A stretch of DNA of 64,000 nt from the UHGV virus genome UHGV-1372088; one strand, written 5' to 3'. This document shows, one piece after another, positions 1 to 57,991 of this stretch. The translations under genes and the position numbers were made by a program. This DNA comes from a virus. The notes under the pieces were generated by a model, which was not told the DNA's origin, searched no databases, and saw nothing but the letters and a program-made list of their open reading frames with translations. Each line of letters starts with the position of its first letter. Within the stretch, counting starts at the first letter, position 1.

Positions 1-238
1 ACCTTGCCTGGGGCTCTCTTTAAATTGAGAATGTTATGAATCAACTCCTGACCTGACGCGAAATTAATCTGACACGGTCGCTTACTGTTTTTAAAGAAGG
101 CGAGGTTGTCCATCACTTCGTCTATATATTCTTTGGTTAGTGACATGGGTAAATTCTCTTATTCGCTTTTGATGGCTCTTATACTAACAACACTGAAACG
201 GTTTTCACCAAAAGGAAAAAGGGCTCTCGCCCTTTCCT

Positions 239-2113: not shown

Positions 2114-2187
2114 TTTCCTTTTAGGTTTCTTTGTGTTAAAGCGTATGTATAATATGTAAATGGATACTTAAAGGATTATATCAGGAT
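2114..2187. promoter_or_regulatory. divergent intergenic region between the helicase operon (minus) and the ParB-like operon (plus)
   Basis: AT-rich 74 bp containing gtatgtataatatgtaaa. Genes diverge on both sides. Confidence 0.3.
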
Positions 2188-9515: not shown

Positions 9516-9674
9516 ATTTTCTTGCATTAGCCATTTTTATGTGATTCCATTACGCCATCGTATGTAAATGAATACATACTCCATCCGGTTCGAGAAACTG
9601 AACCAAGATAGCCTCAAGGATTGAGGGTTTGCCATCCGAGAAACTGGATAGCGGATAATACAAAAGGAATTGTT

Positions 9675-26100: not shown

Positions 26101-29100
26101 TGACGAAGCCGCCGCCCGGACAAAGGCTGTGTCTGACGAGGCTGTCGCTCGCGCCAAGGCTGTGTCTGATGAGGTGGCGGCCAGAACCAAAGCTGTCGCA
26201 GATGAGGCCACCGCTCGCGCCAAGGCGATATCTGACGAAGCCGCCGCACGCGCTACGGCAATTAGCGATTCGGTGGCGGTTGAGGCTACCGCTCGCGCGA
26301 AGGCTATCGCAGACTCCGCGTCGTCTCTCAGCGACAAAATTGAAAAAGAGGTCACCGATCGCGTCAAGGCTGTTTCCGATCTGGACACCAAAACCGCAAA
26401 CGCGATCTCGTCCGAATCATCAAGCCGCATCGCTGCCATTTCTGATGAGGCAAAGACTCGCGCTGACGCTATTCTTCAGGAGAAGAACAGCCGCCAGGCG
26501 GAAATTAAAAATGTGTCCGCTCAAATGCAGACCGCCAACGAGTCTCTGGCGCAGCAGATTTCACAGGTCGCAGCGGGAACAGGCGAGCAGTTCGACAGTC
26601 TCAAGATCTGGTATTTCGATGCACAGACAACTGAAGGGTGGAGCGGCAACAAGAGCGCTATTCTGTCTGCTGACGGGTGGATTCGCTCAGGCAATGGCGT
26701 GGATGCATGGCTGACATCGCCAGCAGGTCTTGCTATCGCCGGCGCATCCTATCGCTTCATGAAGATGCGTATCCGAAAAGTGGGTAATCCAGTTTGGGAA
26801 GGTGCAATTCGCTGGATCACCAAAAGCGGCGATAGCTTCAACAACACCAATTTCATCACGGTAAGCGAACCGGAGTACAACGCCCAGGGTGTTGCTACGC
26901 TGACGGCAAGCGATATCAAGTGGAATAACGATACCGTTCACCAGATTCGTCTTGATCTTTCCATCTCGACCGATGATTCAAACTACATCGAAGTCGACTG
27001 GATCGCCGTCGGCCGACCAACTCCGGGCGCCGGCATGGCCGCTCTGCAAGATGAGAAGACCGCCCGTACCAACGCTGATGCAGCAGAAGCAGCCAGCCGC
27101 TCAACTCTGGCAACACAGCTGCGTGGCTCTTATGACGGGACTGACATTACAAAGCTGAGCTCTGGCCTCATCTTCCAGGAGCAGCAAGCGCGTGTAACTG
27201 CCGATAAAGTAGAGGCGACCGCACGTCAGTCACTGGAAACCAAAGTGAATGACAGCGTATCGAGTATCAACAAGTCGCTCGATACGCTGAACACGAAAGA
27301 CCAGGCGATGGCGTCAGACATCACCGGCCTTAAATCTTCTTTAGACGACAAAGCTGATGCGTCGGCCGTTCAGACACTCAAGGCGACGGTCGAGCAGCAG
27401 GGCTCGAATATCTCTACTCAGGGACAGTCGATCACCAAGCTTCAAGGCGATCTGAATACCACCAACACCAATGTTGGGAAGAAAGCCGACCAGACGGCCA
27501 TGACCGCGTTACAGGGAACTGTGACCCAGCAGGGCAAGGATATCGCGGCAGCCAACAGCAGCATCTCCACCCTGAAGTCTTCTCTGGACACTACGAACGA
27601 TGCGGTGGCCAAGAAAGCTGATGCGACGGCGGTCAGCGATCTGTCTTCTCGCGTAAGCGCGACAGAAGGTAGCGTGTCCAGTCAGGGCGACAGCATTGTC
27701 CAGCTGAATAACTCACTGAGCAACGCTCTGGCGGACTCTGACGCTTCAGCCAAGACTCCGAACAACCTGATCGTCAACCCATCGTTTGAGCGTGGTATGG
27801 ACGGTTATATTGGCGCATCCAGTCTCAGTACGGTCGTTACTGTTCAGATACCGCATGTCGGCACAAAAGCACTGAAAATTGACCCAGGTAGCTCCGTATC
27901 TCCGGGCCAGTACATCGATTTTGTCAAAGGCCGTACTTATGAGATCGGCGTCTGGGTTAAACAGGTTTCTGGAACAACAGATAATGGGCAGGGCAACAAC
28001 AAGCTGCGAGTGGGTAATAGTGCTGGAGCGCCAGTGTTTGAGGTCCCGTTCGCAAACCTCACCATTGACTGGACGAAAGTTAGCAAACGATGGAAGGCTA
28101 CCGAGACGGGAAGTCTGCCCGTTACGCTGAGCAACTATCTGACCGCCGGCAACCGCTACTTCGATGACTTCTACGTTATCGACGTAACCGACGCCGTGAA
28201 CATCGATGCGAGCGCCTCCGCGATTTCTTCGTTGCAGAGTACCGTCACGCAACAAGGTAAAGACATTTCGTCGCAGTCCACCAGCATCGCTGGCCTGAAC
28301 AACAGCCTGAACACAACCAACGAAAACGTCGCGAAGAAGGCTGATTCCTCTGCGGTCCAGACGTTGCAAAATACTGTGACGCAGCAGGGCAAGGATATCT
28401 CTGCCGCCAATAGCGACATCACCAATCTGAAAGGCAGTCTGGATGCGACAAACGATAAAGTCGCTACCAAGGCTGACGCTTCAGCAATGAGTGATCTGGC
28501 GTCTCGCGTATCCCAGAATGAGAAAGGCATTGCCACGCAATCCGACTCTCTGACCAAATTGAGTAACAAGGTGTCCAGCATTGACGTCGGCGGTGTGAAC
28601 CTCATCACCAACGGCGATATGAGTGCGGCGCCGGTATCTCTGCTTTCCACTACGACCAGCTTTAAATCGTTCGATCGTACCGTGACTGCCGATGTCCGTG
28701 GCATGTCAGTGGTGACGCCTCGCTCAATAACGCTGTCCGTATGGTTTAAAGAGCTGTCCTCTGGGTTCGGGACGACGAAGCCGTTCACCAGTGTTGTGAT
28801 TGGTAAAAGCGCTGCCGGCGATAATTGGGGCGTTCGTTTCTATGCCAGCAACGGAAGTGTGTCGCAGAAAGGGGATATGTTCGTCTGGACCGGTACGATT
28901 AACCTGAAAGCCGGCGACACGCTGTTCAATGACCCGACGACGATCCGCTTCATTCTGGAAGATAAAACCCAGAAGACTGGCGCCATCTTCTACCGCGTTA
29001 AGTTGGAAAACGGCAACATCGCAACCGACTGGTCCGCAAGCCCGGACGAAGTGAAGTCAGGTCTGGATGCCAATGCGTCTGCACTGAATGCACTAACGAC

Positions 29101-32100
29101 GCGCGTTGCCTCAACCGAGGGTAATGTTGAATCTCAGGGCAACAGCATCACTTCTCTGAAGAACGACCTGGCGACAACCAACGCCAACGTTTCGAAGAAA
29201 GCTGACTCGTCCGCTGTAGCGACAATCCAGAGCACGGTAACGCAGCAGGGCAAGGACATTGCATCCTCCGCGTCCGACATCTCATCGCTGAAGAATAGTC
29301 TCGCCACAACGGACAGCAACGTCGCGAAGAAGGCGGACGCCTCAGCACTGCAAACTCTGCAAAACACGGTAACACAGCAGGGTAAAGATCTGACCAGCGT
29401 TGGCAATCGTGCAACGGCGCTGGAGAACAGCCTCAAAACGACGAACGACAATGTTGCGACCAAGGCCGATGCCTCCGCGCTGTCAACGCTTCAGAATACC
29501 GTATCACAGCACGGTGATTCCATTGCGTCTCAGAGCGACTCAATAACCAGTCTGAAAAACAGCGTCGGTTCTTTGGTTAACATGGGCGACAATCTGGTTC
29601 AGGACTCCAGCTTTGACAACGGCGGGCAAACGTTCAGGACTCAGCAAAATTCTGGAACATCTGGAAGTATTGTTGCGTTTGGCGCGTTTGGTGAAAACTC
29701 GGCCGGTGTGCGTATGGTTAAAGTCAACGGTACGTCGCCTGGTCTGTTCGCTAACGGCAAACTGCCAGTTCCGGTAAATGGCGCGAGAAAATACCGTTAC
29801 ATTGTTCGCGCGAAGGGTGTTTCCGGGGCAATGAATATGCTGCTGCGCCGCTGGAATTTTAACGGCAATACGGAAGGGGCGTATGAAGACAAGAACAATA
29901 CGCTGACAACCGACTGGCAAACCATCACCTGGGACACATCCTTCTCGCCGAAAGACGGCGTTGACGGTCAGTCCTTTGGCATCTACTGCCATCCGAACAA
30001 TGGCGAGATCTGGATTGATTCATTCCAGGTGTTCGACATTACCGATGCGACCAACAATGAGACGACGGCCAGCGCGTTAAGCAATCTGTCGACGACCGTT
30101 TCCAGGCAGGGTGAAACCGTCACCTCTCAGGGTACGGCGATCACCAAGTTGCAGAATGACCTCAGCTCCACCAAGACCGATCTGGCTAAGAAAGCGGATG
30201 CATCGGCGCTTCAGACACTGCAAAGCACCGTGACCGATCAGGGTAAGACGCTGACCAGCCAGGGTGATGCGATCACGGCGCTGAATAACACCGTTAATAC
30301 GGTGAAAGGTGATGTGGCAAAGAAAGCCGACTCCTCTGCGCTTCAGAATCTTCAGAGCACCGTAACACAGCAGGGTAAAGACATCTCCACCAATGCCAGC
30401 AACATCACGGCGCTGACTGGAAACCTTGCCACCACAAACGCTGCCGTCGCAACGAAAGCTGATGCTTCTGCGTTGAACAACCTCACAACGAGAGTGACCC
30501 AGAACGAGAAGAACATCTCTTCTCAAAGTGACGCCGTAACGAAGCTGTCCAACACGGTAAGCAACATCGCGGTAGGTAGCGCAAACCTGATTCCGAACTC
30601 CGGCACAATGGAGGGATGGTCTGACGTCATTAGCGACACCTATCGTGGCAACAAGGTCTTCTCGTTCACGAGAAAAGCCAACAGCTCAAGCTACGTTCAG
30701 TCGAACGAGATTGTGCTGGCCGGCCCGGTGGACTCCGACAGCTACGTCTACAGCTTCTGGGCGAAAGCCGCGAAGGATGGCACTGTCATCAACGCCTACT
30801 TCTACAACCCAAGCAACACGACCGGTTCTGAAACAAGCCAGGGTGTTAAGGGTAGCAGTTCTGATGGCTCTGCGGCGATCACACTGACCACCTCATGGGC
30901 GCGTTATTGGGTTAAGTGGACTCATTCTCCGACAACCGGAACGAAGCGCTTCATTCCGGCGCGACTGAACAATTCCTCAACTGCCGACCAGACTGTCTTC
31001 ATCAGCTCGCCGCAGCTGGAAACCGGCAACGTCGTAACCGACTGGAAAGCGGCAGACAGTGATTTCGCCTCAGCCTCCGCGCTCAGTACGCTGACCAGCC
31101 GTGTAACCTCGGATGAAGGCGTTATTTCATCTCAGGGTTCGGCAATCGCCGATCTGAAAAACAGTCTGGCGACAACAAACTCGACCGTTGCAACAAAGGC
31201 GGACGCTTCAGCGTTGAGTTCGCTTCAGAACACCGTAACCAAGCAGGGTACGGACCTGAAGTCGGCGTCTGATTCCATCACGACGCTGAAGAACAGCATC
31301 GCGGCGACTGATGCCAATGTTGCCAAGAAAGCGGACGCATCCGCTCTCCAGACGCTCCAGAGCACCGTCTCTACGCAAGGGGATAAGATTGCCAGTCAGG
31401 GTAATTCTATCACCAGCCTGGGCAACTCACTGGACACCGTGAAGGGCGATGTTGCGAAGAAGGCGGACACTACGGCTTTGAATAACCTTTCTACTCGGGT
31501 TAGCAATGCCGAAGATAAGATCAGCAGCAGCAGTGACGCCATCACTTCGCTGAACAGCTCGCTGAATCAGCAGTCTAAGCGCGGCGCAAACATCCTGCCA
31601 GACGGGACGTTCGAGAGCTATTCGAGCGGGTACAATATCACCAATGGTCGCGTCATCGTGACTGCTGACGATTCTCACGGCGGAAACAAATGCATCCGTG
31701 TGACACGTCCGAACGACTACACTAATTATACAGATAACAGTGACAACCACATCTTCAGCGGCTTCCAGGTTCGCGACAACGCGGTATTCTATGTTGAGTG
31801 CTGGGTTAAGCTGGACGCCAAGAGCACGACGATGGATGGCTCGGTGCAGATTGCGGTCGGCATGTCGTTGCAGTATCAGGATAACTCCTGGCAGTGGCCG
31901 GCACTCATTAAGTCGGCAAAAGATCTGTCCGCAGACACCTGGACGAAAGTCAGTGGCTATCTGAAGAGCAGCAAGAGCGGTATCAAACAGGCGATGGTGC
32001 GGATCTCCATACCAAACGTATCGACTGTTAAGGCGGGTAACTCCTTCCTCGTCGATGATTTTGTCATTACCGACGTGACAGACGCCTATAATGCCCAGCA

Positions 32101-35100
32101 GACGGCTGATGCCACTGCGAGCGCGGTATCAACGCTTCAGACGACTGTGTCCAGGCAGGGCGACAGCATCACCTCGCAGGGCGACAGCATCACAACCCTG
32201 AATAATGGCCTGGCCACGGCGAACAAAGCCATTGGCACCAAGGCTGATGCCTCCGCGCTGTCATCGCTGCAAAACACCGTTACCCAGCAGGGTGAAGACG
32301 TTGCTGCCAACACCAACAATATCACTGCGCTGTCAAATCAGGTTGTCAACGGCAAGCAGGACACTTGGGCTCGCCGCATCTACAAGTGCCAGCTTGCCAA
32401 CGCCGGCACCGAACCGACGTTTAGCGACATTCAGGGGCTTTCCCCGGTATTTATGGATGAAGTGGCCGACGCAGCCAGGATGGACTTCTCTGGCGCCGGA
32501 TCGTATGTAGTCGCGCATTACAAGGCGATGGTTCGTGTTGCTGCGGATACCACCATCTCTGTGTCGCCTGGCTCTCGTGTGTTTGATGACTCCGGTGCGG
32601 TGTATGTGAATGGTGTTCGTCAGGCTGCTGCGTTGTCTGGAACAGCTGTACTCAATTTCACACTGTCCGCCGGCTGGAATACTGTAGAGTTTCTGGTTAA
32701 CCAGTGGACCGGTAATGCCTATGTCAATCTGGGCTTCAAGCTGGGCGACAAGGTTGCCGAGCTGTATTCTGGTCTGGGCGTCTCTTCACTGTCTTCGGCG
32801 CTGAACTCGATCAGCTCCAACGTCAGCAAGGTGGGTGATCAGGTTTCCAGCAACAGCACGGCGATCACCTCTCTGAAGAACGGCCTGAGCGATACCAACT
32901 CTACCGTTGCGAAGAAAGCGGACGCTTCGGCTCTTCAGACGCTGCAAAACACGGTTACTCAGCAAGGTAAGGATATTGCAAGCCAAAGCGACAGTGTTAC
33001 GAATCTCAGCAACGCACTAAGTAACGTTTCTATTGGTGGCGTCAACCTGATCAAAAACTCAGGCGACATGGCCGGGTGGTCTGGTAAAACCAATGAAATC
33101 TTCCGTGGCAATGCGGTGATTAGCGCGACTACTAAAGCGGGCAGTTCCTACCGAGATCTCAAGGAGATTACTCTCGACGCTCCAGTCGACAATGCAGAGT
33201 ACGTTTACAGTTTCTTTGCAAAAGGCGGTGAGAACGGCCAGAGCATGACCGCTTACTTCTACAATCCTAACTCGACGATATCTAGTGTTAGTAGCCAGGG
33301 TGTGTCAGGCGGTGATGTCGATGGTCGTATGTCATTCACTTTGACAACTGAGTGGGTTCGTTATTGGGTTAAGTGGAAGCAGAAGCCGGGAACTGGATCT
33401 AAGAGACTAATCCTTGCTCGCATCCAAGCATCTTCGACGAAAGATCAGACCGTCTCTATCACCAGCCCTAAGCTGGAAGTTGGCAATATGCCTACAGAGT
33501 GGTCTCCGGCGCCGAGCGATATGGCATCGTCTAACGATCTGTCATCGCTGAAGACTACGGTTGACGCGAATAGCGGCGCTATTCAGTCTGTAACCTCTCG
33601 CGTCCAGAAAACTGAAGACAATATCTCCACGCAGAATACCGCGATCACTAAGCTTCAGGGTGATTTGTCGACCACCAACAATCTGTTTTCCACGAAGGCT
33701 GATTCCACCGCGCTTCAGACGCTGTCAGGTCGCGTCGATAAGACGGAGTCCAGCATCAGCACCCAGAACGATGCAATAACCAAGCTGAACAGCAGCCTTG
33801 ATACCACAAATAAAGCTGTGGCTAAAAAGGCGGAGCAGTCGTCTCTCGATACGCTGAGCGGCCGGGTATCCAGCACTGAAAATGGGATCACGGCGGCGAA
33901 CTCCAGCATCACGTCTCTGAATGCGGCTATTCGCGCAGAGAACGCGAGCAGTGGGGATTTGATTACTAACCCTACATTTGACCCTCAGTACGCTCAGATG
34001 GGCTTTACCGTCGTCACAACCGACACAGATGGTGTTCCAGCAAACTGTCCATTCAGATATGCGGCTAAACTTGCGTCCCGTGACCATCATCCGAACTTCA
34101 ACGCCATCGTTGCAACATTGGGCGATGTGTTTGAGATTTCGGTGCTGGTGGCGTGCGGCGCTGGGAATGCTGACTTTAACCTCTATCTTTGCACAGCAAA
34201 CGGCCCAACTGGTGGGATAGGTGCCCCGCTTTATAATGGCGGAAATACCAAAGCTACAAGCACCTGGACTCGCGTAACATGGAAGTTCACTGTTAGCCAG
34301 GCAATGGTTGACAAAGGCTACATTCGTCCGTTCCTGCAAATCAACCAGTCTTCACCGTTCGGTACGATCTGGTACGTCACTGACTGGCATATGCGCAACA
34401 TCACTGCGGCATCAAAGGCGCAGGATACGGCGAATGCCACCTCTAAGGCGGTCGATTCTCTGACGTCCACGGTGAACCAACAGGGCAGCGATATTTCCTC
34501 GATCGGCTCTCGTACAACGTCGCTTGAGAATGGTCTTAGCACCACAAACGCCAACGTTTCGAAGAAGGCTGATTCTTCTGCGCTTCAGACGCTACAGAAC
34601 TCGGTAACACAGCAAGGCAATGACATTTCTGGCCAAGGTTCTCGCGTAACGTCTCTGGAAAATAACCTGACGGCCGGAGCAAACCTCATTCCTAACCCAG
34701 CGATGCTTAACGGCGCTCAGGGTTGGGGTGGTTCTGAGACAACTGTTGATGGTTACGCGGCGGTCGTCAGCAGCTCAGGCTGGGGACCATCGTCGTCCTA
34801 CTTCCAAGTGACGCCAGGCGACATTATCGATTTGAGCCTGATGAGCCAGAGCGCGGGCGCAGCATCCATCTCATGGGGACTCCGCTTCGACGGCCCTGGA
34901 CTGAGCAATTTCTGTCTCTACGCCCCTGCGTTGACCTTCGCGGCTGGCGAGAAGAAGAGTGTATCTGCGGCTATTACCGTACCTGCTGGCGCAACAAAGG
35001 CGATGTTCCAGGCAAGCGCTAGGGCGACTTCCGCACGTACCGTATATAACATCATTGCTACCCGCCGTGATGCTGGAACCAAAGCCAACAGCTCTGCGAT

Positions 35101-38100
35101 TGATACGTTGAACAGCACCGTCAAAACGCAAGGTGACACGCTTAGCTCGATCGGAAGTCGTACAACTTCGCTGGAAAATGGGCTGAGTAGCGCTAACAGC
35201 GCTCTCTCACTGAAAGCGGACGCGTCGGCACTGTCATCGCTGACAAATACAGTGACCCAACAAGGCAAGGATCTGGATGCAGCAGAAGCCAATATAACTG
35301 CGGCGAACACCAGCATCACCTCCATGCAGGCGTCTCTGACTCGTCGCACTGTATTTACGGTAACGGCGAAAGGCAACGGTAACAGCGCTAATCACGGTTT
35401 CTTTGATGAGTCAGGTAAAAATCTGTTTACGCCTGGTCGCAGCTATGCGCTGATCACGTTTAAAGCGAATAGCGACGGCTCGACGGTCATTAATACCAGC
35501 AAAACCTATGACGTTTTTGGCTCTGCCAACAACGGGAAGGCGATGTCTGACGATATTGCGGCTCTGGCTAATGGCGTTTACGTTTGCGTGATGACTTATG
35601 ACGAGCCGTCGGGTCAGCGTAACTCGATTGCATCTGCCTTAGAGTTGCTCGGTGGCACAACTGAAGTTATTAACTCTCTGCCATATCGCGGCGCGTACAT
35701 TCTCCTTGGCCGTAAAGGCATGAAGGCCGGCGACGGTCTGGAGTTACGCGCACCTACAGGTGGTGACTCCAGCGCATTTATTTCCACGTCCGTTGAGTTT
35801 GTGAACGGGGTAATGATGGGGTTGGGCGCCGCCGGCGGTGTGATGATGAAGGCGGATGCGAACGCCAGTGCAATCACCACTCTGCAAAACACCGTTAAGC
35901 AGCAGGGCGACACTATCGCTTCGAGCAGTAGTGCCATCACCTCTCTGCAAAACGACATGAGGACGGTTAATGACAATGTCTCTAAAAAGGCAGATGCATC
36001 GGCGCTTCAGACTTTGCAGAACACGGTAACGCAGCAGGGTAAAGATATCTCTACCCAAAGCGCGTCGCTGACGCAGCTCAATAACAGCCTCAGCGCGACG
36101 AATGCCAGCATCGATGCGTCGGGCAAGATCCCTGGGAACCTGATCGTCAACTCGTCATTCGAGCGCGATAAAGATGGCTACACCGGCTGGAGCTCTATCG
36201 CCTCCGTCATCGCAGCGTCGGTGCCACACTCAGGAAGTAAAATCCTCAAGCTGGCTGCCGGCGGATCTGTGTTAGTCGGGCAGGACGTTACCTATCTGAA
36301 GGGTCGCACCTATAAAATCGGCGCATGGGCTAAGCAGGATTCAGGCACCGTTATTCAGGCTGCGGACAACACGAAGTTCCGTATCGCGGATAGCACAGGT
36401 TTGCTGGCTAGTAGTGTTTACGGTCCTTTCACGTCAAACTGGCAGGAGATTAGCTTCACCTGGAGGCCGGGTAAAGATGTGACAGCGGCGACACAGATCA
36501 CCGCCTACCTGTCCGCCGGTGCGATGTATTTCGACGACTTCTACGTTATCGACATCACCGACCGCGTCGATCTGGATGCCACGGTGTCTGCGGTTTCCGG
36601 TCTGACGACGAGAGTGTCCAATGCTGAAGGGAATATTTCTTCCCAATCCGACAGCATCACCACTCTGAACAACGGTCTTAGCACTCTGAACAAGACGGTC
36701 AGCACCAAGGCCGATGCCACGGCGCTGTCTTCACTTCAGAATACCGTGACGCAGCAGGGCAAGGATATTTCGTCGGCGAGCGGAAGCATCACCAGCCTTC
36801 AGAGCAGCCTGAATACGATCAAGGTTCAGAGCAACCCTTGGATTGACGGTACGTTTGAAACCTATGACAACAATCAGCAGCTGGGCGGCAGCACTGCGAT
36901 TGTAACGACGGACTTCAAGAACAGCGGCAACAAATGTCTGAAGGTTACTCGCCCAGCCAATACCAGCGGGAATTCCGACAAGACGATCGGCTCCTATTCT
37001 GCGGTGCGCCAGAGCGCGAAATATCGCGTTGAGTTTTGGGCTATGATGCCGGCAAGTGAAGCCCCGCCGTCTGGCTGGACTGTGGTCGTTGGTCTGCACT
37101 CCATCAACAAAGATGGTGGGAATGACTGGCAGGGCATTGCGTTCGACGAGGCTGGTCTTGGCGGTCGCGACCAGTGGGTTAAGTTTACTGGTGTAGTGAA
37201 AGTGAGTCCGAGCGTTACCCGTAGCCATGTATGGATTTCTACTCGTGGTCAGAGTGGCTCCAACACACCTGGATACGCGGTGTACATTGATGATTTCGTC
37301 ATTACCGATATCACTGATGCTGCGGATGCACAGGCTACGGCGGATGCGAACGCAACAGCAATCTCATCGTTGCAGACGAAGGTCAGCGATATCGATGGGA
37401 AAGTGACTGCCCAAACGTCGCAACTGTCTTCCATGCAGTCGAAGGTAGATGCGTCTTCTTCGAAAGTGGATCAGCTGTCTAAGACCATTTCGGACAGTCA
37501 GAGCACTCAGGCATCGTTGAACACCAGTCTTCAGTCTCAGATTGATGCCCAGGCTTCGGCCAACATCAAAAACCAGGCTGATCTGAACTCGGCGGCCACG
37601 AGCATTGCGACCATTAAGTCTACGCAGTCCACACAGGCTACGCAGCTTAGCGCAATTGCCAAGCAGCAAACCGATATGACGGCATCGCTGGACAATCAGT
37701 CGGCATCTATTCAGACGCTTCAGGAGTCTGTCGCGAACAACGATTCTCTGAAGAGCACCTGGATGGTGAAGATGGAGACGAACAGCGCCGGCCAGAAATA
37801 TGCAGCGGGTATCGCGCTGGGTGTGGATGGGAAGAGCCAGCAAAGCCAGTTCTTGGTTCAGGCAGATCGCTTCGCGCTGATTAATACCAGCAACGGCAAT
37901 ACGACGACACCGTTTGTGATCGATAACGGTGTGACGTACATGAATGCCGCTTACATCAAAGATGGGGCGATCACGAACGCGAAAATTGGTGGTGAGATTA
38001 GGTCTGACAACTTCGTAGACGGATCTCAGGGCTGGCGTGTCGGAAAGGATGGTTCTTCTCAGTTCCACAACGTCGTTGTCCGAGGACATGTTGAGGCCAA

Positions 38101-38704
38101 CAGTGGATCGTTCAGAGGCGCTGTTTATGCTACTGACGGTTGGTTCCAGGGCACCGTATACGCGAACCGTATTGAGGGCGACATTGGTTCCTTCGCCATC
38201 AACATCGCACAGCACCGCACGCGTAAAGTGCCGAAGGCGACATGGCAATGGTTCGAGCTGGCCAGATTCCGTCGCCAGAGCTTCGACCAGGTGATCAACA
38301 TTCGCGGCGGTCTATTGCAGACCGACAGCATCACCATCGACGGCGGCGCGAAACTCCGGGCGGGTATGTCGTATTCTTCCGGCGCAGATGGAGGCCTTAA
38401 TCCAGGATTCCTGTCACACGCCATGTTGTTGCGTGCCACTGGCGCAACTTCTGGCGGCGGCAGCATGGAGATCGGCATTGAGCTTATGTACGAAACAGGT
38501 GGGTGGGACCGCCTGCTGACGGCACAAGGGGAGATGAACGTCGACAATATGTCGTTTGTTGTTCCAGCTGGCAGTGGGGATGCAGTTCTTCGTTATGGTT
38601 GTTATCTTGACCGTAACGGGCAAATGGTATTAACCATCCTTTCACGATTCGACGCTTTTTCGGCGCGGAATAACAATGTAATTCGTGGATCGTCCACACC
38701 GTAA
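23192..38704 (+). CDS. J: giant central tail fibre / tip attachment protein J homologue (5170 aa) with inserted tandem CBM4_9-like modules
   Basis: N-terminal ~850 aa are collinear with lambda gpJ (NYPNSALVGLRVNSEQFGS, FN3 region). C-terminal ~330 aa match the gpJ C-terminal region (WMVKMETNSAGQKYAAGIALGV...FLVQADRFALI). Between them lies ~3.9 kaa of repeats. Confidence 0.85.
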   Translation: MEQFKKRKLPEIIAGAGGKKSSGSSRTPVEADDTVNSNVKVSILDLLGEGVIGGLKDGAKSIFLNDLPLQNSDDTYNHSGVTWWFRDGSQDQSIIEGFDYTETPKTIGLQVKKTSAVTMAVDSDSADRFRVILKFPSLKSVDKKTGDTSGTSVTYKFQVSSAGGAFVDVAPEGESSGTVTLTAKKAGVYYRSYILNLPKPGSKYQVRVVRVTDDNKDTTYLANDIYVDTVGEIINTNMNYPNSALVGLRVNSEQFGSSMPSRSYLISGMKIRVPSNYDEVTNEYRGTWDGSFKLMSSSNPAWILYDLVTNKRYGLGEFVRESMFDLGQLYQIGRYCDALVDDGFGGKEKRFAINTQITTLQDAYRCVQDIAGAFRGMVYWAGGMVHVTQDSPSDPIAIYSNSNVIDGRFSYKGSARKDRPSVALITYNNKEDNYKQNIEYVEDLEAIERYGIRKTESVAFGCTSRGMAHRVGLWTLYTGRMESDVITFQTGMDSAFLVPGDVILIHDKFRAGRRNSGRVVASTANSITLDSTVDMTKAGTITFINAEGRMISRDILESGVVSKVTFKDAVNEADRPVADGIWVISQSDLKPLQARVVGVTQGEDGVGSTITCIQNNPSKYAAIDDGAVLIPQNTTVLDPTFSKPENLKITEGTYLSSPGNLNVSLTATWEGKSAEYWVSWRRSDAGNVSNWQTAKVNEEQFEVKPVAESGKYDFQVYGVSVSGRKTEILSTTYQVLGTMTPPGAPSSLTAVGDYRQIILGWSNPSSVDLDHIQIYASKTNDVTKATLLAKSTTTNFTHSGLEDSVTWYYWIRSANKRGMTSDWSSKLGTSAMTRDVLSFLQNKITESELAKDLLADIDSKAVAAEVDASIEDAKSEATAQVEAAKKEASSALSAAQVTLNNAINQEATDRNNAVADEAKQRSQAISAEADARTKAISDEAIARADAITKESDTRTRAMADEVTARNKAVADEAAARTKAVSDEAVARAKAVSDEVAARTKAVADEATARAKAISDEAAARATAISDSVAVEATARAKAIADSASSLSDKIEKEVTDRVKAVSDLDTKTANAISSESSSRIAAISDEAKTRADAILQEKNSRQAEIKNVSAQMQTANESLAQQISQVAAGTGEQFDSLKIWYFDAQTTEGWSGNKSAILSADGWIRSGNGVDAWLTSPAGLAIAGASYRFMKMRIRKVGNPVWEGAIRWITKSGDSFNNTNFITVSEPEYNAQGVATLTASDIKWNNDTVHQIRLDLSISTDDSNYIEVDWIAVGRPTPGAGMAALQDEKTARTNADAAEAASRSTLATQLRGSYDGTDITKLSSGLIFQEQQARVTADKVEATARQSLETKVNDSVSSINKSLDTLNTKDQAMASDITGLKSSLDDKADASAVQTLKATVEQQGSNISTQGQSITKLQGDLNTTNTNVGKKADQTAMTALQGTVTQQGKDIAAANSSISTLKSSLDTTNDAVAKKADATAVSDLSSRVSATEGSVSSQGDSIVQLNNSLSNALADSDASAKTPNNLIVNPSFERGMDGYIGASSLSTVVTVQIPHVGTKALKIDPGSSVSPGQYIDFVKGRTYEIGVWVKQVSGTTDNGQGNNKLRVGNSAGAPVFEVPFANLTIDWTKVSKRWKATETGSLPVTLSNYLTAGNRYFDDFYVIDVTDAVNIDASASAISSLQSTVTQQGKDISSQSTSIAGLNNSLNTTNENVAKKADSSAVQTLQNTVTQQGKDISAANSDITNLKGSLDATNDKVATKADASAMSDLASRVSQNEKGIATQSDSLTKLSNKVSSIDVGGVNLITNGDMSAAPVSLLSTTTSFKSFDRTVTADVRGMSVVTPRSITLSVWFKELSSGFGTTKPFTSVVIGKSAAGDNWGVRFYASNGSVSQKGDMFVWTGTINLKAGDTLFNDPTTIRFILEDKTQKTGAIFYRVKLENGNIATDWSASPDEVKSGLDANASALNALTTRVASTEGNVESQGNSITSLKNDLATTNANVSKKADSSAVATIQSTVTQQGKDIASSASDISSLKNSLATTDSNVAKKADASALQTLQNTVTQQGKDLTSVGNRATALENSLKTTNDNVATKADASALSTLQNTVSQHGDSIASQSDSITSLKNSVGSLVNMGDNLVQDSSFDNGGQTFRTQQNSGTSGSIVAFGAFGENSAGVRMVKVNGTSPGLFANGKLPVPVNGARKYRYIVRAKGVSGAMNMLLRRWNFNGNTEGAYEDKNNTLTTDWQTITWDTSFSPKDGVDGQSFGIYCHPNNGEIWIDSFQVFDITDATNNETTASALSNLSTTVSRQGETVTSQGTAITKLQNDLSSTKTDLAKKADASALQTLQSTVTDQGKTLTSQGDAITALNNTVNTVKGDVAKKADSSALQNLQSTVTQQGKDISTNASNITALTGNLATTNAAVATKADASALNNLTTRVTQNEKNISSQSDAVTKLSNTVSNIAVGSANLIPNSGTMEGWSDVISDTYRGNKVFSFTRKANSSSYVQSNEIVLAGPVDSDSYVYSFWAKAAKDGTVINAYFYNPSNTTGSETSQGVKGSSSDGSAAITLTTSWARYWVKWTHSPTTGTKRFIPARLNNSSTADQTVFISSPQLETGNVVTDWKAADSDFASASALSTLTSRVTSDEGVISSQGSAIADLKNSLATTNSTVATKADASALSSLQNTVTKQGTDLKSASDSITTLKNSIAATDANVAKKADASALQTLQSTVSTQGDKIASQGNSITSLGNSLDTVKGDVAKKADTTALNNLSTRVSNAEDKISSSSDAITSLNSSLNQQSKRGANILPDGTFESYSSGYNITNGRVIVTADDSHGGNKCIRVTRPNDYTNYTDNSDNHIFSGFQVRDNAVFYVECWVKLDAKSTTMDGSVQIAVGMSLQYQDNSWQWPALIKSAKDLSADTWTKVSGYLKSSKSGIKQAMVRISIPNVSTVKAGNSFLVDDFVITDVTDAYNAQQTADATASAVSTLQTTVSRQGDSITSQGDSITTLNNGLATANKAIGTKADASALSSLQNTVTQQGEDVAANTNNITALSNQVVNGKQDTWARRIYKCQLANAGTEPTFSDIQGLSPVFMDEVADAARMDFSGAGSYVVAHYKAMVRVAADTTISVSPGSRVFDDSGAVYVNGVRQAAALSGTAVLNFTLSAGWNTVEFLVNQWTGNAYVNLGFKLGDKVAELYSGLGVSSLSSALNSISSNVSKVGDQVSSNSTAITSLKNGLSDTNSTVAKKADASALQTLQNTVTQQGKDIASQSDSVTNLSNALSNVSIGGVNLIKNSGDMAGWSGKTNEIFRGNAVISATTKAGSSYRDLKEITLDAPVDNAEYVYSFFAKGGENGQSMTAYFYNPNSTISSVSSQGVSGGDVDGRMSFTLTTEWVRYWVKWKQKPGTGSKRLILARIQASSTKDQTVSITSPKLEVGNMPTEWSPAPSDMASSNDLSSLKTTVDANSGAIQSVTSRVQKTEDNISTQNTAITKLQGDLSTTNNLFSTKADSTALQTLSGRVDKTESSISTQNDAITKLNSSLDTTNKAVAKKAEQSSLDTLSGRVSSTENGITAANSSITSLNAAIRAENASSGDLITNPTFDPQYAQMGFTVVTTDTDGVPANCPFRYAAKLASRDHHPNFNAIVATLGDVFEISVLVACGAGNADFNLYLCTANGPTGGIGAPLYNGGNTKATSTWTRVTWKFTVSQAMVDKGYIRPFLQINQSSPFGTIWYVTDWHMRNITAASKAQDTANATSKAVDSLTSTVNQQGSDISSIGSRTTSLENGLSTTNANVSKKADSSALQTLQNSVTQQGNDISGQGSRVTSLENNLTAGANLIPNPAMLNGAQGWGGSETTVDGYAAVVSSSGWGPSSSYFQVTPGDIIDLSLMSQSAGAASISWGLRFDGPGLSNFCLYAPALTFAAGEKKSVSAAITVPAGATKAMFQASARATSARTVYNIIATRRDAGTKANSSAIDTLNSTVKTQGDTLSSIGSRTTSLENGLSSANSALSLKADASALSSLTNTVTQQGKDLDAAEANITAANTSITSMQASLTRRTVFTVTAKGNGNSANHGFFDESGKNLFTPGRSYALITFKANSDGSTVINTSKTYDVFGSANNGKAMSDDIAALANGVYVCVMTYDEPSGQRNSIASALELLGGTTEVINSLPYRGAYILLGRKGMKAGDGLELRAPTGGDSSAFISTSVEFVNGVMMGLGAAGGVMMKADANASAITTLQNTVKQQGDTIASSSSAITSLQNDMRTVNDNVSKKADASALQTLQNTVTQQGKDISTQSASLTQLNNSLSATNASIDASGKIPGNLIVNSSFERDKDGYTGWSSIASVIAASVPHSGSKILKLAAGGSVLVGQDVTYLKGRTYKIGAWAKQDSGTVIQAADNTKFRIADSTGLLASSVYGPFTSNWQEISFTWRPGKDVTAATQITAYLSAGAMYFDDFYVIDITDRVDLDATVSAVSGLTTRVSNAEGNISSQSDSITTLNNGLSTLNKTVSTKADATALSSLQNTVTQQGKDISSASGSITSLQSSLNTIKVQSNPWIDGTFETYDNNQQLGGSTAIVTTDFKNSGNKCLKVTRPANTSGNSDKTIGSYSAVRQSAKYRVEFWAMMPASEAPPSGWTVVVGLHSINKDGGNDWQGIAFDEAGLGGRDQWVKFTGVVKVSPSVTRSHVWISTRGQSGSNTPGYAVYIDDFVITDITDAADAQATADANATAISSLQTKVSDIDGKVTAQTSQLSSMQSKVDASSSKVDQLSKTISDSQSTQASLNTSLQSQIDAQASANIKNQADLNSAATSIATIKSTQSTQATQLSAIAKQQTDMTASLDNQSASIQTLQESVANNDSLKSTWMVKMETNSAGQKYAAGIALGVDGKSQQSQFLVQADRFALINTSNGNTTTPFVIDNGVTYMNAAYIKDGAITNAKIGGEIRSDNFVDGSQGWRVGKDGSSQFHNVVVRGHVEANSGSFRGAVYATDGWFQGTVYANRIEGDIGSFAINIAQHRTRKVPKATWQWFELARFRRQSFDQVINIRGGLLQTDSITIDGGAKLRAGMSYSSGADGGLNPGFLSHAMLLRATGATSGGGSMEIGIELMYETGGWDRLLTAQGEMNVDNMSFVVPAGSGDAVLRYGCYLDRNGQMVLTILSRFDAFSARNNNVIRGSSTP

Positions 38705-50568: not shown

Positions 50569-50806
50569 AATGATGGATATTGTTTTGTATGCGGCGGTAG
50601 TCGTCAGCTTGTTTTACACGTCGGCCAGTCTCGTTGGGTGGCTGTTCAATCTGTTCTCTGCAAAGTGCCTGGCAGATAAGAAAACCGTTCAGAATGGTGC
50701 ATCCAAGCTTATTAGCCTGGTGATTCTGCGCTGGGGCGAGCTCAGGAAAGAGACCGCTTATGAGATCGTCACAGGCGGCTATGTCGTGACAATCAAAAAA
50801 AAATAG
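50561..50806 (+). CDS. small hypothetical membrane protein
   Basis: 81 aa with an N-terminal hydrophobic helix. Confidence 0.25.
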   Translation: MFEMMDIVLYAAVVVSLFYTSASLVGWLFNLFSAKCLADKKTVQNGASKLISLVILRWGELRKETAYEIVTGGYVVTIKKK

Positions 50807-51238
50807 CGGTTTAGATATATAAGTGTTTACATACATGCTCGTAATGTATAAGATTGTTTTGTTTTCGGAGTGATGCGATTTTTGCGGAGTTTTAGAAACT
50901 GACCACAAAGATAAATGCAAACGATGATGTAGTTCTGATGGCGGCTTAATAGCCTATAAGTCAGTGAGGTCTTCCGATTCCTCATTAACAAATTCGGCGC
51001 ACTGATCCGGTGTGATTAATAATGGATAGCGGAGACTTGCTGGTGAATAGGCGATACTGACCCACGTACCCTTAACCACGCGATAGAGTCAGACGGCGAG
51101 TCTCTGCGAACATGGGTGATGGCCTTTTAGTTTGTCGATTAGCTGTGCATAGCGTCGGCGAGCGAAGTCTGGTGACTTAAAGGTTTATTCCGATGCCTGA
51201 TGTGTGAAATGCAAATAGCATATTTGAGGCTGAGGATT

Positions 51239-51267
51239 GCGGGTTCGATTCCCGCGTCACTCTCCCA
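51239..51267 (+). other. tRNA-like T-arm plus acceptor 3-prime fragment (gcgggttcgattcccgc gtcactc t ccca)
   Basis: Canonical T-stem/loop (GTTCGATTC). No convincing full cloverleaf upstream. Confidence 0.4.
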
Positions 51268-51797
51268 CGTTTCAGCTGTTTGGGTGGTTAGGAGCATTTC
51301 CAATAACCATATCCCGGTTTCAGCCCGCAACTGACCGCCCAAACAGCTGCGTCGTGTGTGATTACTTAATGTCTCATTTCATCTTGGGTTAATTTGAAAT
51401 TGCGACGTAGCGCCTTTCTCAAAACATGAAGAGGGTTTTGAGAAAGTGCGTGCTTACGATCGGGCTTTCTTTTGCCATTGACAGTCTTCTTCAACGACTT
51501 GATATGTTGATCATAAGCCCAGCCGGGGGTGGCGTGATAACACCGGCTGATTGAGATGTTTGTCTAAGGAAGGAGACTTTGGTATTGGTCTCCGATCTCA
51601 CCTCCAGGCCATCGAATATGCCTCCGCTGTTTGGTGACAGGCTCAGTCCGTTCCCTCTTAACGATAAAAGAGGTGCAAGCAAACAAAGCAGTCTGGTTGA
51701 CTGCGGCCGAGGAAGACGTCTTATCCGGCAGAGAGTGGTTAGATTCCGCTTGTTTGCGCCAACCTAAAGGGCTTTTTCGAGAGTCCTTCAGATTGGA

Positions 51798-51871
51798 TAC
51801 CCAATGCGACAAAACGGTAAGTCGAGAGGATGCTGAGTCCGATGATGCAGGTTCGAGTCCTGCTTGGGTGA
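51798..51871 (+). tRNA. tRNA-like gene, possibly degenerate (weak anticodon stem)
   Basis: Acceptor tacccaa/ttgggtg, D-stem cgac/gtcg, T-arm gcagg ttcgagt cctgc. The anticodon stem forms only 3 bp (loop tgctgag). Confidence 0.3.
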
Positions 51872-52079
51872 CTTATCTAAGATGATGTGATTCCATACAT
51901 CACTTAGTGTCGAGGTCTAAATGGTGCGGCCATCAACCGCGTAAACAGCCATTAGATCCGAGCCACAAGCCTCGTCTGGCACTAACGTAAAGTGCAAGTG
52001 ACGTGAAATTCAGGCTGTACGGCCAGAAGAGTAGCGTCGCGAACCATAGATCAACTTCATAATTTAAAAGAGAATACAC

Positions 52080-53763: not shown

Positions 53764-54519
53764 ATGGGTTTACCACGTAAGAAGGCTCGCAAAGCAGGGA
53801 AAGGGGATCACGCATTACGCGGTCGTCGCGCTGATTACATCATTGTCGATGATCTGGCAGACGTCCAGACCCCGCGCTCCAAGCGGGACAATACACCCAT
53901 TGAAGCACGTAATGAGGCTCAGGGTCATTACCTGGCCAACATTCAAGCCAAGTCGCTAATCATCGCCACCGGCGAAGCCGGCTGCGGCAAAACGTTCCTG
54001 GCCACCGCGTATGCTGCGGACCGTCTGCTTGCGAAAGACGTCCAGCGCATTATTGTTACCCGCCCCGTACTGCAAGCTGAAGAAGATTTGGGCTTTCTTC
54101 CGGGTGATGTGGGTGAGAAGTTTGCCCCCTACTTCCGACCCGTCTATGACGTTCTCCAGAAGCGTCTGGGCGCGTCCTTCCTCGAATACTGTCTCAAGCC
54201 AGAAGTCGCCAAAGTAGAGATCGCCCCGTTCGCTTATATGCGTGGCCGGACGTTTGAGGACGCTGTGGTCATTCTGGATGAAGCGCAAAACGTTACACCG
54301 TCACAGATGAAAATGTTCCTGACCCGCATGGGCGAGAATGTCACCGTCATTGTGAACGGCGATGTGACACAGTGCGACCTTCCGTTGGAGATTGAGTCCG
54401 GTCTGGACGATGCTCTTCGCCGCTTCAAACCCAGCCGTGATGTGGGGATGGTCGAGTTCTCGTTAGAAGATTGCGTCCGCTCTGACCTCTGTAAAGTTGC
54501 ACTAGATGCCTACCAGTAA
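53764..54519 (+). CDS. PhoH-like ATPase
   Basis: GEAGCGKTFLATAYAADRL Walker A and a PhoH-like core. Confidence 0.6.
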   Translation: MGLPRKKARKAGKGDHALRGRRADYIIVDDLADVQTPRSKRDNTPIEARNEAQGHYLANIQAKSLIIATGEAGCGKTFLATAYAADRLLAKDVQRIIVTRPVLQAEEDLGFLPGDVGEKFAPYFRPVYDVLQKRLGASFLEYCLKPEVAKVEIAPFAYMRGRTFEDAVVILDEAQNVTPSQMKMFLTRMGENVTVIVNGDVTQCDLPLEIESGLDDALRRFKPSRDVGMVEFSLEDCVRSDLCKVALDAYQ

Positions 54520-56170: not shown

Positions 56171-56493
56171 TGGGCGACAATTTTACAACAAAGCTGACGT
56201 TCAAAAGGCTTGCTCTGGCCGAGTGGGAGTCGCTATCCACACCCATAAGGGATAAGTTCAAGAAGGTTTTGGCTAAGCGTCTGGAGTCACTGGATTCGCT
56301 GACGATGCCGAAAAATAGGCTCTCTCTTCAGCATAATTGCTACAAGATTAAGCTGAAGAACGACGGCTATCGTTTGGCCTATACGGTAAAAAATGACGAG
56401 TCCGGCACCGTCACCGTCGTAGTAACTGTCGTTGCGGTGGACCGCCGTGATGAAATTTACAATGAGTTGAAAAAGAGACTTAATGACGAATAG
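56170..56493 (+). CDS. RelE/ParE-family toxin
   Basis: 107 aa. YKIKLKNDGYRLAYTV...VVTVVAVDRRDEIY fits the RelE/ParE fold pattern. Translationally coupled to the antitoxin (TAATG). Confidence 0.55.
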   Translation: MGDNFTTKLTFKRLALAEWESLSTPIRDKFKKVLAKRLESLDSLTMPKNRLSLQHNCYKIKLKNDGYRLAYTVKNDESGTVTVVVTVVAVDRRDEIYNELKKRLNDE

Positions 56494-56842
56494 AGAACGG
56501 GAAAATAAACCCGCTCTGGGCATAAGGCAGAACATGACCACCGAAGAAATGCGCGACTTCCTTTTGCAAAACAACTTTATGCGCGTCAGACAGCTGGAGG
56601 ATGGAAGTTGGATCGGCACGATGAAGTTGATGTTCACCACGTCAGTTTGCATGGACATCGATGAGCTTTCCCCCTTCCGCTATCGCTGGTGCTTCGCGGA
56701 CCCGGAGGAAGCGAATCACTTCTTTGATACGGCAGTCGACTTTGACGAAGTTCCGACTCGTCGAACGTCACTGAAAGGACACCGGTATCGGGGAGAGCCT
56801 TTGCTGCGCGAAAAAGACGAATTTGGATTTGATAAATGGTAG
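56483..56842 (+). CDS. hypothetical protein
   Basis: 119-aa ORF. Confidence 0.3.
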   Translation: MTNRERENKPALGIRQNMTTEEMRDFLLQNNFMRVRQLEDGSWIGTMKLMFTTSVCMDIDELSPFRYRWCFADPEEANHFFDTAVDFDEVPTRRTSLKGHRYRGEPLLREKDEFGFDKW

Positions 56843-56878
56843 GCGCAAGCCTGCCAGAATCCACCATAACCCACCTTC

Positions 56879-56909
56879 TTGATTCCATACTTATATAGTA
56901 TGGAATCAA
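56879..56909. other. perfect 31-bp palindrome ttgattccatac ttatata gtatggaatcaa (12-7-12), candidate recombinase core site
   Basis: 12-bp inverted arms flanking a 7-bp AT spacer, 60 bp upstream of the tyrosine recombinase gene. Confidence 0.6.
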
Positions 56910-56968
56910 AGGTAAAATGAAGCTATATTTGGCATCATCCTGCCACCCATTTCCTATCAGGGAGCGTT

Positions 56969-57991
56969 ATGAGCCTCGACCTCGATCACCAAAAAGCCAT
57001 CGAAAACAGTTCAGTTGAGACAGTCGCCTATCTGGAACAGTGTCGGGCGATGTCCGGCAAGCAGCTGCTGGACGCCCCGGACGAAATGACATTTGAGATG
57101 GGCTTCCGCATTTTCACCAGGCTTTCACTTCTCGTCACCCGGCGCCGGCCGGAGATAGCGGTCCACTGTGTCCTGATTCACATCATGCCGATGTTGCAAT
57201 CAAAACAAATTGCCGCCATAAAGCGATCCGACATTAACAAAATCATAAATGGCCTGGTGCTGGACGGCAAGATTGTCCAGAGCCGACGAGTCTTTTCTGT
57301 TATGAAACAGTTCCTTAGCTGGTGCGAGTTCCAGGGCCACATCGAGACGTCGCCCCTGGCGTCCATCTCGCTAAATAAGGTTGCCGGCGGCGTTCGCATG
57401 AAGCCGAGAGAGCGGATCTTGAGCGACGAAGAGATAAACCTGTTCTGGACGATGTGGGATTTGGCCGACGTTGACGACTGCACCAAGTGGGCCGCCCGCC
57501 TCATTCTCTGTTCAGCCAGAAGACCGGATGAGGTGCTAAGGGCCAGGCGCAGTGAGTTCGATCTTGATAGAGATGTATGGAATCAGGGTACGCGCAACAA
57601 GTCCGCAAGACGACACACACTCCCCATAAGTCCAATTATGAGGGAGTGTATTGAGTCATTGTTTTTGGCCGGAGGTAACAGCGAGTGGCTGGTTCCGTCA
57701 AAAAGAAGGGAGGGCAATCCGGTATCCAAAGTGCTGATTTCTCAGGCATCACGTCGGATACAGGGATTGTCCTACAGTGGATTTAATGAACCTTTTGAGA
57801 TTCGAGACTTAAGGCGCACAGCCAGAAGTGCGTTTTCGCGCCTTAAGATCTCTCAAGAGGTAGCACGACAAATTATGAATCACTCGCCAGAAGGTCTGGA
57901 TAACGTATACAACAAGCACGACTACTTGGATGAAATGGCCGAAGCTATGTTGAAATATTCAACCTTTTTAAGAAGTTGCATTAAAGGGTAG
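56969..57991 (+). CDS. int: tyrosine recombinase / integrase
   Basis: RDLRRTARSAF (R box) and HSPEG...NVYNKHDY (H-x-x-R-like region and catalytic Y). Confidence 0.7.
   Translation: MSLDLDHQKAIENSSVETVAYLEQCRAMSGKQLLDAPDEMTFEMGFRIFTRLSLLVTRRRPEIAVHCVLIHIMPMLQSKQIAAIKRSDINKIINGLVLDGKIVQSRRVFSVMKQFLSWCEFQGHIETSPLASISLNKVAGGVRMKPRERILSDEEINLFWTMWDLADVDDCTKWAARLILCSARRPDEVLRARRSEFDLDRDVWNQGTRNKSARRHTLPISPIMRECIESLFLAGGNSEWLVPSKRREGNPVSKVLISQASRRIQGLSYSGFNEPFEIRDLRRTARSAFSRLKISQEVARQIMNHSPEGLDNVYNKHDYLDEMAEAMLKYSTFLRSCIKG

Follow-up and report, generated by a model that had tools for sequence, protein, structure and literature searches.

What is the function of the perfect palindrome that stands in front of the integrase gene of an SSU5-like phage-plasmid, and is the integrase (here, Int) the protein that uses it? 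The DNA analyzed here (64,000 nucleotides; hereafter, the window) is a Klebsiella SSU5-like phage-plasmid, the structural genes of which resemble those of Salmonella phage SSU5 and of Klebsiella SSU5-like phage-plasmids. Its tail region includes one open reading frame (ORF) of 5,170 aa (positions 23192-38704), the counterpart of which in the pJN2-26 record carries the annotation of putative tail fibre protein (4,045 aa). Around the palindrome, a stretch of 3.5 kb is 97.6 to 99.5% identical to four circular, non-mobilizable Klebsiella plasmids (104 to 114 kb). Megablast of the palindrome region against a phage collection gave no matches; relatives were obtained through a protein search and a plasmid collection. 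An earlier note on this DNA had proposed that the palindrome is a lox/dif-like core site of the adjacent recombinase. This proposal is supported by invariant arms around a variable 7-bp spacer at ~120 loci, by symmetric arm changes in a distant int clade, by linkage to int alone, and by a sharp recombination junction. We consider it likely that the palindrome is an Int core site of the lox/FRT type that acts in resolution and exchange; within this reading, Int binding, the cleavage positions, and the role in vivo are the parts that we infer.

The palindrome and the adjacent integrase gene

The palindrome spans positions 56879-56909 and reads ttgattccatac-ttatata-gtatggaatcaa (in upper case, TTGATTCCATAC-TTATATA-GTATGGAATCAA). 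The perfect inverted repeat with a 7-bp AT spacer reported previously is thus present as described, and a repeat finder extended its arms to 13 nt (100% complementary and 5 nt apart), i.e., to a perfect 13-5-13 inverted repeat. Its conserved core has the form TGATTCCATAC-N7-GTATGGAATCA (Table 1). It is located 3' of the stop codon of a 119-aa ORF (56483-56842) and 5' of the 340-aa ORF of int, with 59 bp between its end and the int start codon (previously given as 60 bp). The genes to the left encode a Phd/ParE toxin-antitoxin pair, a glutaredoxin, PhoH, and a Dam methylase, and those to the right are int, a gene for a convergent 126-aa protein (a putative repressor according to the annotation of a relative), and genes for CobT-like, AAA_5, and DnaE proteins. 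Several RNA-like elements were also recorded to the left of the palindrome. Two sub-threshold Rfam tmRNA matches, at 50783-50949 (permuted or alpha tmRNA body) and at 51239-51255 (with a T-arm/acceptor-like 3' end, GGGTTCGATTCCCGC...CCA, at ~51225-51262), are both upstream of tRNA-Gln, and a full-length match to the Rfam family Ysr251 (Yersinia sRNA 251; 47.6 bits; E = 5e-10; gathering score, 100) lies antisense within the phoH/DUF2829 region (54321-54514, minus strand).

Table 1. Positions of the palindrome, int, and associated elements (window coordinates unless a locus is named)
Feature	Position	Strand	Remarks
Satellite half-site TGATTCCATACATC	51888-51901	+	15 bp after tRNA-Gln (51798-51872); points toward palindrome; kept in relatives
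Left-flank motif, weakly conserved	56853-56878	+	Consensus AgAtTT.aaaAAA..gccctt.aA over 42 representatives of <85% identity
Conserved core, left arm	56880-56890		TGATTCCATAC
Conserved core, spacer	56891-56897		TTATATA
Conserved core, right arm	56898-56908		GTATGGAATCA
Right-flank motif, conserved	56909-56932	+	Between core site and int; consensus TT...aAAAA...G.TATtTT; window sequence AAggtAAAAtgaaGcTATaTTT
int	56969-57991	+	340-aa tyrosine recombinase; core-binding and catalytic domains; Pfam PF00589, PF22022
Satellite half-site TGATTCCATACATC	57572-57585	-	Inside int (codons D-V-W-N-Q); points toward palindrome; exact 11-mer at 57575-57585
LexA box, examples in relatives	L001:2953-2976; L002:2953-2976; L120:4603-4622

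Perfect inverted repeats in which the arms have 12 nt or more and the spacer 10 nt or fewer occur twice in the 64-kb window, and any such repeat was obtained in 5 of 100 composition-preserving shuffles. The second one, at 51414-51446 (12-9-12; CTTTCTCAAAAC-ATGAAGAGG-GTTTTGAGAAAG), lies in a non-coding tRNA-like region and is not followed by a T-run. As single-stranded DNA, the palindrome folds with -13.9 kcal/mol (z = -7.0). The 11-mer TGATTCCATAC has four matches in the window at up to one mismatch, all of which are exact (0.63 expected; four matches were reached in none of 100 shuffles). No LexA box, promoter-like match, or terminator-like match was found at the window palindrome. Both flanks carry conserved motifs. 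The left-flank motif, which includes AGAATC at 56856-56861 in its window version, moves with the variable (cargo) side of the palindrome and is possibly an accessory or bending sequence. The right-flank motif, to which a similar A/T-run motif corresponds in the distant clade described below, is possibly an accessory sequence or a piece of the int promoter.

The int product matches the Pfam family Phage_integrase (PF00589) and, below threshold, Phage_int_M (PF22022). An alignment with lambda Int and a 36-sequence alignment of the Int family revealed that the catalytic positions R185, K211, R282, and Y314 are invariant and that H305 is nearly so; the invariance of the first four extends to P4-type outgroups. 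The His-I position is occupied by Arg279 (RDLRRT; ~57806 in the window) in every member of the Int family, which is unusual and counts against a core-site reading of the palindrome. In an AlphaFold2 model (pLDDT, 89.3), the N-terminal half is entirely helical and is joined to a catalytic domain, giving a two-domain fold like that of lambda Int. The closest structures are those of lambda Int 75-356 on core DNA, XerH-difH, Tn1549 Int, and IntI, and Cre follows at rank 40 or below. The nearest sequence outgroup (≤32% identity) consists of P4-type integrases with the arm-binding domain PF13356 (DUF4102). Neither this domain nor a beta-rich N-terminal domain was found in Int by the Pfam search or in the model, indicating that Int has no arm-binding domain. 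In its ancestry, Int is a truncated lambda/P4-type integrase. Recombinases that act without an arm-binding domain on a symmetric site are of the lox/FRT/dif kind.

Conservation of arms and spacers across the Int family

A protein search identified int orthologues (~55% identity) in nine phage-plasmid records from E. coli and Klebsiella. In three of these (Cyrano, pJN2-26, and PhiR41_1), the arms TGATTCCATAC and GTATGGAATCA are unchanged and located ~100 bp upstream of int, and the seven-base spacers are CTACTAT, TTGGTAG, and ATAGTAG. A scan for the exact arms around any spacer, with its length fixed at 7 bp, led to the identification of 113 IMG/VR contigs and 7 genome contigs (~120 loci), the latter including a 108-kb Yersinia pestis contig (pMT1) and contigs from Kluyvera, Buttiauxella, and Chimaeribacter. 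On every scan locus carrying int, the site is upstream of the gene at a distance of 45 to 113 bp. The int orthologues of this near clade are 52 to 64% identical, and the arms are identical. This invariance is in part a matter of ascertainment, as the loci were found through their arms; the protein-first searches are free of this bias and cover only ~20 loci. Relaxed scans with the inner 8 nt of the arms only, or with the outer 7 nt only, matched only loci that lack int and yielded no int-linked arm variants of the near clade; the matches represent unrelated hairpins or chance. The ~120 loci include at least 16 spacer variants, which are AT rich. Over 42 representatives, the AT-rich spacer follows a loose Y-T-n-n-W-A-R pattern, and weak A/T-tract motifs lie beside both arms. 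An AT-rich spacer is typical of strand-exchange regions.

In 101 of 118 near-clade loci, a canonical LexA box (CTGT-N8-ACAG) stands immediately in front of int, ~55 bp to the right of the palindrome, an arrangement that implies putative SOS control of int in most relatives. No such box was found in the window (56910-56968), in the window's own lineage (0 of 6 loci), or in the distant clade. We count the box against the core-site reading, as it is not an obvious form of regulation for a housekeeping resolvase.

More distant Int homologues (41 to 49% identity) were approached protein first, and the upstream DNA of 10 loci was read. All 10 have an 11-7-11 inverted repeat 19 to 144 bp upstream of int, and the spacer length is 7 bp in each, including two imperfect sites. 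In seven loci, the site is TGACTCCAGAC-N7-GTCTGGAGTCA, in which positions 4 and 9 differ from the near-clade arms and the changes are mirrored in both arms. The two imperfect sites are natural intermediates: L258 (7890-7925) combines a left arm TGACTCCAGAC with a hybrid right arm GTATGGAGTCA, one arm being near-clade-like at position 9, and L262 (7880-7915) is an imperfect palindrome (TGACTCCCGAC / GTCTGGAGTCT). In these comparisons, the site sequence co-varies with the Int lineage, which is the site specificity expected of tyrosine-recombinase core sites. The palindrome also has the parts of such a site, i.e., two inverted arms of ~11 to 13 bp and a short 7-bp spacer of variable sequence.

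Four of the 10 distant loci are SSU5-like phage-plasmids, including those of Xenorhabdus and Providencia. The other six (L255 to L259 and L261; including Pantoea, Rahnella, and Erwinia) are non-phage and consist of ordinary plasmid or chromosomal genes, such as those for TonB receptors, type VI secretion systems (T6SS), chemoreceptors, and transporters; they include megaplasmid-like contigs and a 507-kb Pantoea vagans replicon. Because int is the only gene that these six loci have in common with the window, the site belongs to Int rather than to the helix-turn-helix (HTH) protein beside int or to a phage function. An operator for the HTH protein was accordingly rejected, since six loci with int and the palindrome have no gene for this protein; the 11-mer is also absent from the HTH-proximal intergenic region of the window.

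The spacers include four exact reverse-complement pairs (CTACTAT/ATAGTAG, CTATTAA/TTAATAG, TCTATAG/CTATAGA, and TTATATA/TATATAA). Flanks are common to both sides of the flipped spacer in two cases, i.e., in the CTATAGA/TCTATAG pair and in L003 versus L050, where both flanks are identical and the spacer is exactly reverse-complemented. The otherwise near-identical loci with in-place flips are L003 versus L050, L017/L054/L117 versus L058/L083/L105, and L052/L122 versus the CTATTAA group, and the flips appear to have arisen several times independently. Flips with unchanged flanks are no product of normal conservative recombination and therefore count against the core-site reading; their simplest cause would be template switching inside the perfect hairpin. 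They show that the site functions with its spacer in either orientation to int, which would be expected when a monomeric replicon has a single site.

The cargo edge and the satellite half-sites

All pairs of dereplicated loci were compared over 300 bp on each side of the palindrome. Both flanks were at least 85% identical in 377 pairs. In 518 pairs, the int-side flank was at least 85% identical and the other flank less than 65%, and the reverse case (cargo side conserved and int side unrelated) was represented by no pair in the same comparison. The same test gave 7 such pairs at a control point 3 kb away. The flanks fall into 41 families on the left and 16 on the right. For example, L010 is 100% identical to L001, L023, and L064 over the right 400 bp, 63 to 70% identical over the left 27 bp (-27 to -1), and unrelated beyond, and L034 shares 91 to 93% of its left flank and 74 to 79% of its right flank with L066 and L113, the spacers being different. 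Many E. coli alignments to the Cyrano region end 2 nt before the left arm. Despite its divergence, the left 27 bp still contains a recognizable motif, suggesting exchange between homologous sites of different lineages rather than random insertions. By these comparisons, the palindrome is a sharp one-sided recombination junction at which, on this indirect, evolutionary evidence, DNA is exchanged. The junction could in principle be a product of short-homology recombination at the sole 29-bp island of identity rather than of Int. A 240-kb E. coli cointegrate that carries the module of int and site was examined as a palindrome-mediated fusion and rejected, as the replicons are joined via IS100 ~10 kb away. 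As a separate observation, the pMT1 contig (Y. pestis NCTC5923; 108 kb; L120) carries the F1 capsule operon caf1M-caf1A-caf1 (40-3890) within the variable DNA on the left of its palindrome (4521-4549); the encoded proteins have the Pfam domains PapD, Usher, and Antig_Caf1, and the caf1 stop codon is ~630 bp from the site.

Outside the palindrome, the exact 11-mer occurs more than 150 times in 1.1 Mb of loci, compared with an expectation of 0.5. These satellites comprise one or two plus-strand copies 1.2 to 7.3 kb to the left, a minus-strand copy in int, and a minus-strand copy ~6.2 kb to the right, in dnaE, with the common extension TGATTCCATACAYC; in the whole 110-kb pJN2-26 genome, they are found at these places only. 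All point toward the palindrome, and no copy in the opposite orientation was found among the loci scanned, although this pattern is weak on its own (1 in 16) since there are only four orthologous satellite classes. No satellites were found in the distant clade.

The classes differ in what their conservation can tell. Where the upstream sequence extends to 7.5 kb or more (16 loci), every locus has one or two plus-strand satellites. The window copy after tRNA-Gln, with its exact 11-mer core at 51888-51898, belongs to this group; the earlier note had listed it as a partial arm copy at 51885-51896, and the copy is real and conserved, its actual position being 51887-51898. A further copy claimed at 9541-9550 (gtgattccat) reads tgattccatTA, which differs from the 11-mer at two positions, a match at the level of chance. 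The copy inside int, which had not been listed, is exact in 54 of 114 loci. It is no better conserved than other stretches of int, the third codon positions vary in some clades, a protein motif, hW(N/R)QG, fixes 7 of its 11 positions, and the distant clade has no such site there; we discounted it as independent evidence, as it is largely accounted for by the motif. The dnaE copy is located in the codons for a loop of the protein that varies in sequence and that the distant clade lacks; even so, 27 of 32 unique sequences have the exact 11-mer. The left-most satellite supplies the start codon of a small membrane protein together with the codons that follow it (MIPYI). The window contains neither the dnaE copy nor the start-codon copy.

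Several roles for the satellites were rejected. They are not recombination junctions, as no discontinuity pairs were found at each satellite class. They are not relics of hybrid sites, as the spacer-side sequence (A-Y-C...) matches no palindrome spacer and there is no degenerate second arm. Nor are they lambda-style arm-type sites, since they have core-arm sequence and lie kilobases away. Thus, the previous suggestion of accessory sites holds insofar as the post-tRNA copy is a conserved satellite, but this copy, 5 kb off and with core-arm sequence, is not of the arm type. By analogy with the systems considered below, our best guess is that the satellites serve auxiliary Int binding. A more specific proposal, which we regard as tentative and rather doubtful, is that Int binds the lone 14-bp half-sites (TGATTCCATACATC) 0.7 to 7 kb on either side and acts there other than by recombining. 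Such roles may include a polar roadblock, a loop anchor, the unloading of SMC complexes as by XerD at XDS sites, or repression of lytic-replication genes (i.e., from within the 5' part of dnaE and at the start codon of the small membrane protein). RNA-level pairing between left and right satellites is also possible.

Role of the palindrome and relation to known systems

The module (Cyrano-type int plus site) is present in 252 of 5,426 complete E. coli genomes (~5%), and all 255 copies are on plasmids, with no chromosomal copy among these genomes. A single full site is present in the complete pJN2-26 genome, in which no site-specific recombinase other than int is annotated. (The same record annotates attL and attR [L127:5911-5930 and 7181-7200] flanking a RepB replication gene; these are unrelated to the palindrome and probably represent spurious predictions by an automatic prophage caller.) The records of related replicons give them as circular, and Cyrano, a related phage-plasmid, is maintained at ~5.5 copies per cell (PMC9928086). 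Of the two uses suggested earlier for the core site, multimer resolution is favored over chromosomal integration because all E. coli copies are on plasmids, pJN2-26 has one site, and the Cyrano copy number is low; the presence of one intact site per replicon and the lack of an arm-binding domain in Int are further evidence in the same direction.

In the proposed mechanism, one Int protomer would bind each 11-bp arm (TGATTCCATAC), two sites would synapse as an Int tetramer, and strands would be exchanged across the 7-bp AT-rich spacer via a Holliday junction. The main job of the reaction would most likely be to convert plasmid dimers into monomers on a low-copy circular phage-plasmid, in the manner of Cre/loxP in P1. 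Between co-resident replicons with identical spacers, this reaction would also produce cointegrates, with cargo exchange as a by-product; the fixed position of the site, at the right-hand border of a cargo region that varies greatly, would thereby be explained. A Cre-like role in cyclizing infecting DNA is possible by analogy.

It is unlikely that the palindrome is a pure operator, i.e., that Int or an Int-like repressor (cf. the recombinase-fold proteins YopR and SroF) binds the palindrome and the satellites with no recombination. The location of the site upstream of int would suit an operator, as would the Arg residue at the His-I position, the weak Foldseek matches to SroF and YopR (ranks 37 to 42), and the conserved lone half-sites up to 7 kb away at which no junctions occur. 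However, the nucleophile Tyr314 is invariant together with R185, K211, and R282 throughout the family and in the P4-type outgroups, and the one-sided junction at the palindrome is sharp and has 41 different partners on its left. In most lineages, moreover, the site and the likely int promoter with its LexA box, ~55 bp downstream, do not overlap, and the distant clade has the palindrome without satellites. Autoregulation by Int at its own core site is compatible with the core-site reading as well.

Chromosomal integration, with the palindrome as an attP core (e.g., for a tRNA or tmRNA gene), is quite improbable. None of the 255 E. coli copies is chromosomal. The seven genome-collection matches are intact palindromes by int, three of them on contigs of 108 to 113 kb (roughly plasmid sized) and four on contigs of 12 to 169 kb; split half-sites of the attL/attR type flank no element, and the module also occurs on large non-phage replicons. 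The arms are perfectly symmetric, with no nearby arm-type sites for an Int that lacks the corresponding domain. These observations outweigh, in our assessment, the descent of Int from P4-type integrases, the tRNA genes and tRNA/tmRNA-like fragments a few kilobases to the left, and the LexA-controlled int of most relatives, which resembles induction/excision control.

We regard as very improbable a function as an RNA or DNA hairpin, such as terminating transcription of the upstream operon or insulating it, serving as a processing site, or forming a node in an RNA-RNA network in which left UGAUUCCAUACAUC copies pair with GAUGUAUGGAAUCA inside the int and dnaE mRNAs. The fold is very stable, the palindrome lies between two same-strand genes, and, on the transcribed strand, the left satellites are exactly complementary to the right ones over 14 nt. 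A terminator, however, is opposed by the lack of a U-tract, the AT-rich stem, and a negative terminator scan. The stem sequence is invariant instead of freely co-varying, with a loop that varies, and the only arm changes observed follow the Int lineage; the palindrome persists where satellites are absent; and an RNA hairpin leaves the junction at the site unexplained. A protelomerase target of the telRL type was rejected, as the central 7 bp is odd and non-palindromic in most lineages, Int has 340 aa (versus ~600), and the relatives are circular.

If the palindrome is a core site, Int and the palindrome probably work like Cre/loxP of P1 or like a Xer/dif system with a single recombinase. Cre/loxP likewise pairs a single tyrosine recombinase of ~340 aa with one simple adjacent site of identical inverted arms and a short asymmetric spacer, on a low-copy phage that lives as a circular plasmid; arm-type accessory sites are unneeded, and the expected roles are dimer resolution and possibly the cyclization of infecting DNA. 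However, the Int site has arms of 11 bp (13 in the window) and a 7-bp spacer, compared with 13-8-13 in loxP, and Cre has no detectable sequence similarity to Int beyond the fold, Int being lambda/P4 derived with Arg at His-I. A LexA box before int in most relatives and oriented satellites also set the Int system apart from Cre/loxP, and the Int system is known here from sequence.

XerH/difH, XerS/difSL, and XerCD/dif-cer are dimer-resolution systems in which two ~11-bp arms surround a short center, and XerH-difH is among the best structural matches of Int. In contrast to these, Int is plasmid encoded rather than host encoded, its arms are perfectly symmetric, and its spacer is 7 bp rather than 6 bp; accessory sequences for PepA, ArgR, or ArcA are lacking beside the site, and nothing points to FtsK dependence. 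The arms of the Int site are unrelated to dif arms. Lambda/P4-type integrases are the closest relatives of Int in sequence and structure, and 7 bp is the length of their overlap region, but Int differs from them in lacking PF13356 and in having a perfect palindrome without arm-type sites and no integrated E. coli copies. TnpI/IRS (Tn4430 and Tn5401) and XerD at XDS sites (Bacillus subtilis) are precedents for the binding of extra core-type motifs away from the crossover with no recombination there. TnpI motifs are present in the terminal repeats of Tn5401. In B. subtilis, XerD-bound dif-like XDS sites unload SMC complexes around dif, as cited in one report (PMC11840125). The satellites differ from both in being single 14-bp half-sites, 0.7 to 7 kb from the core, mostly inside genes and in one clade only. 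The features of the Int system that depart from textbook examples are the satellites, the spacer flips, and the SOS control predicted for int in most relatives.

A literature search on the SSU5/pMT1/pHCM2 integrase, on multimer resolution in phage-plasmids, and on the motif returned no description of the site or of the function of the integrase, and public records annotate the gene only as an integrase. The probable recombination site of this conserved "integrase" is now defined by sequence for the SSU5-like phage-plasmids, a family with hosts including E. coli, Klebsiella, Salmonella, Citrobacter, and Y. pestis (as pMT1). The two natural arm specificities and the many natural spacers represent candidate orthogonal recombinase/site pairs. 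If the proposed action of Int at the satellites is correct, the resolution site would be the center of a 12-kb recombinase-organized domain in SSU5-like phage-plasmids of Enterobacteriaceae. As the fixed edge of a variable cargo region, the site would provide a concrete mechanism for the exchange of accessory genes among these replicons.
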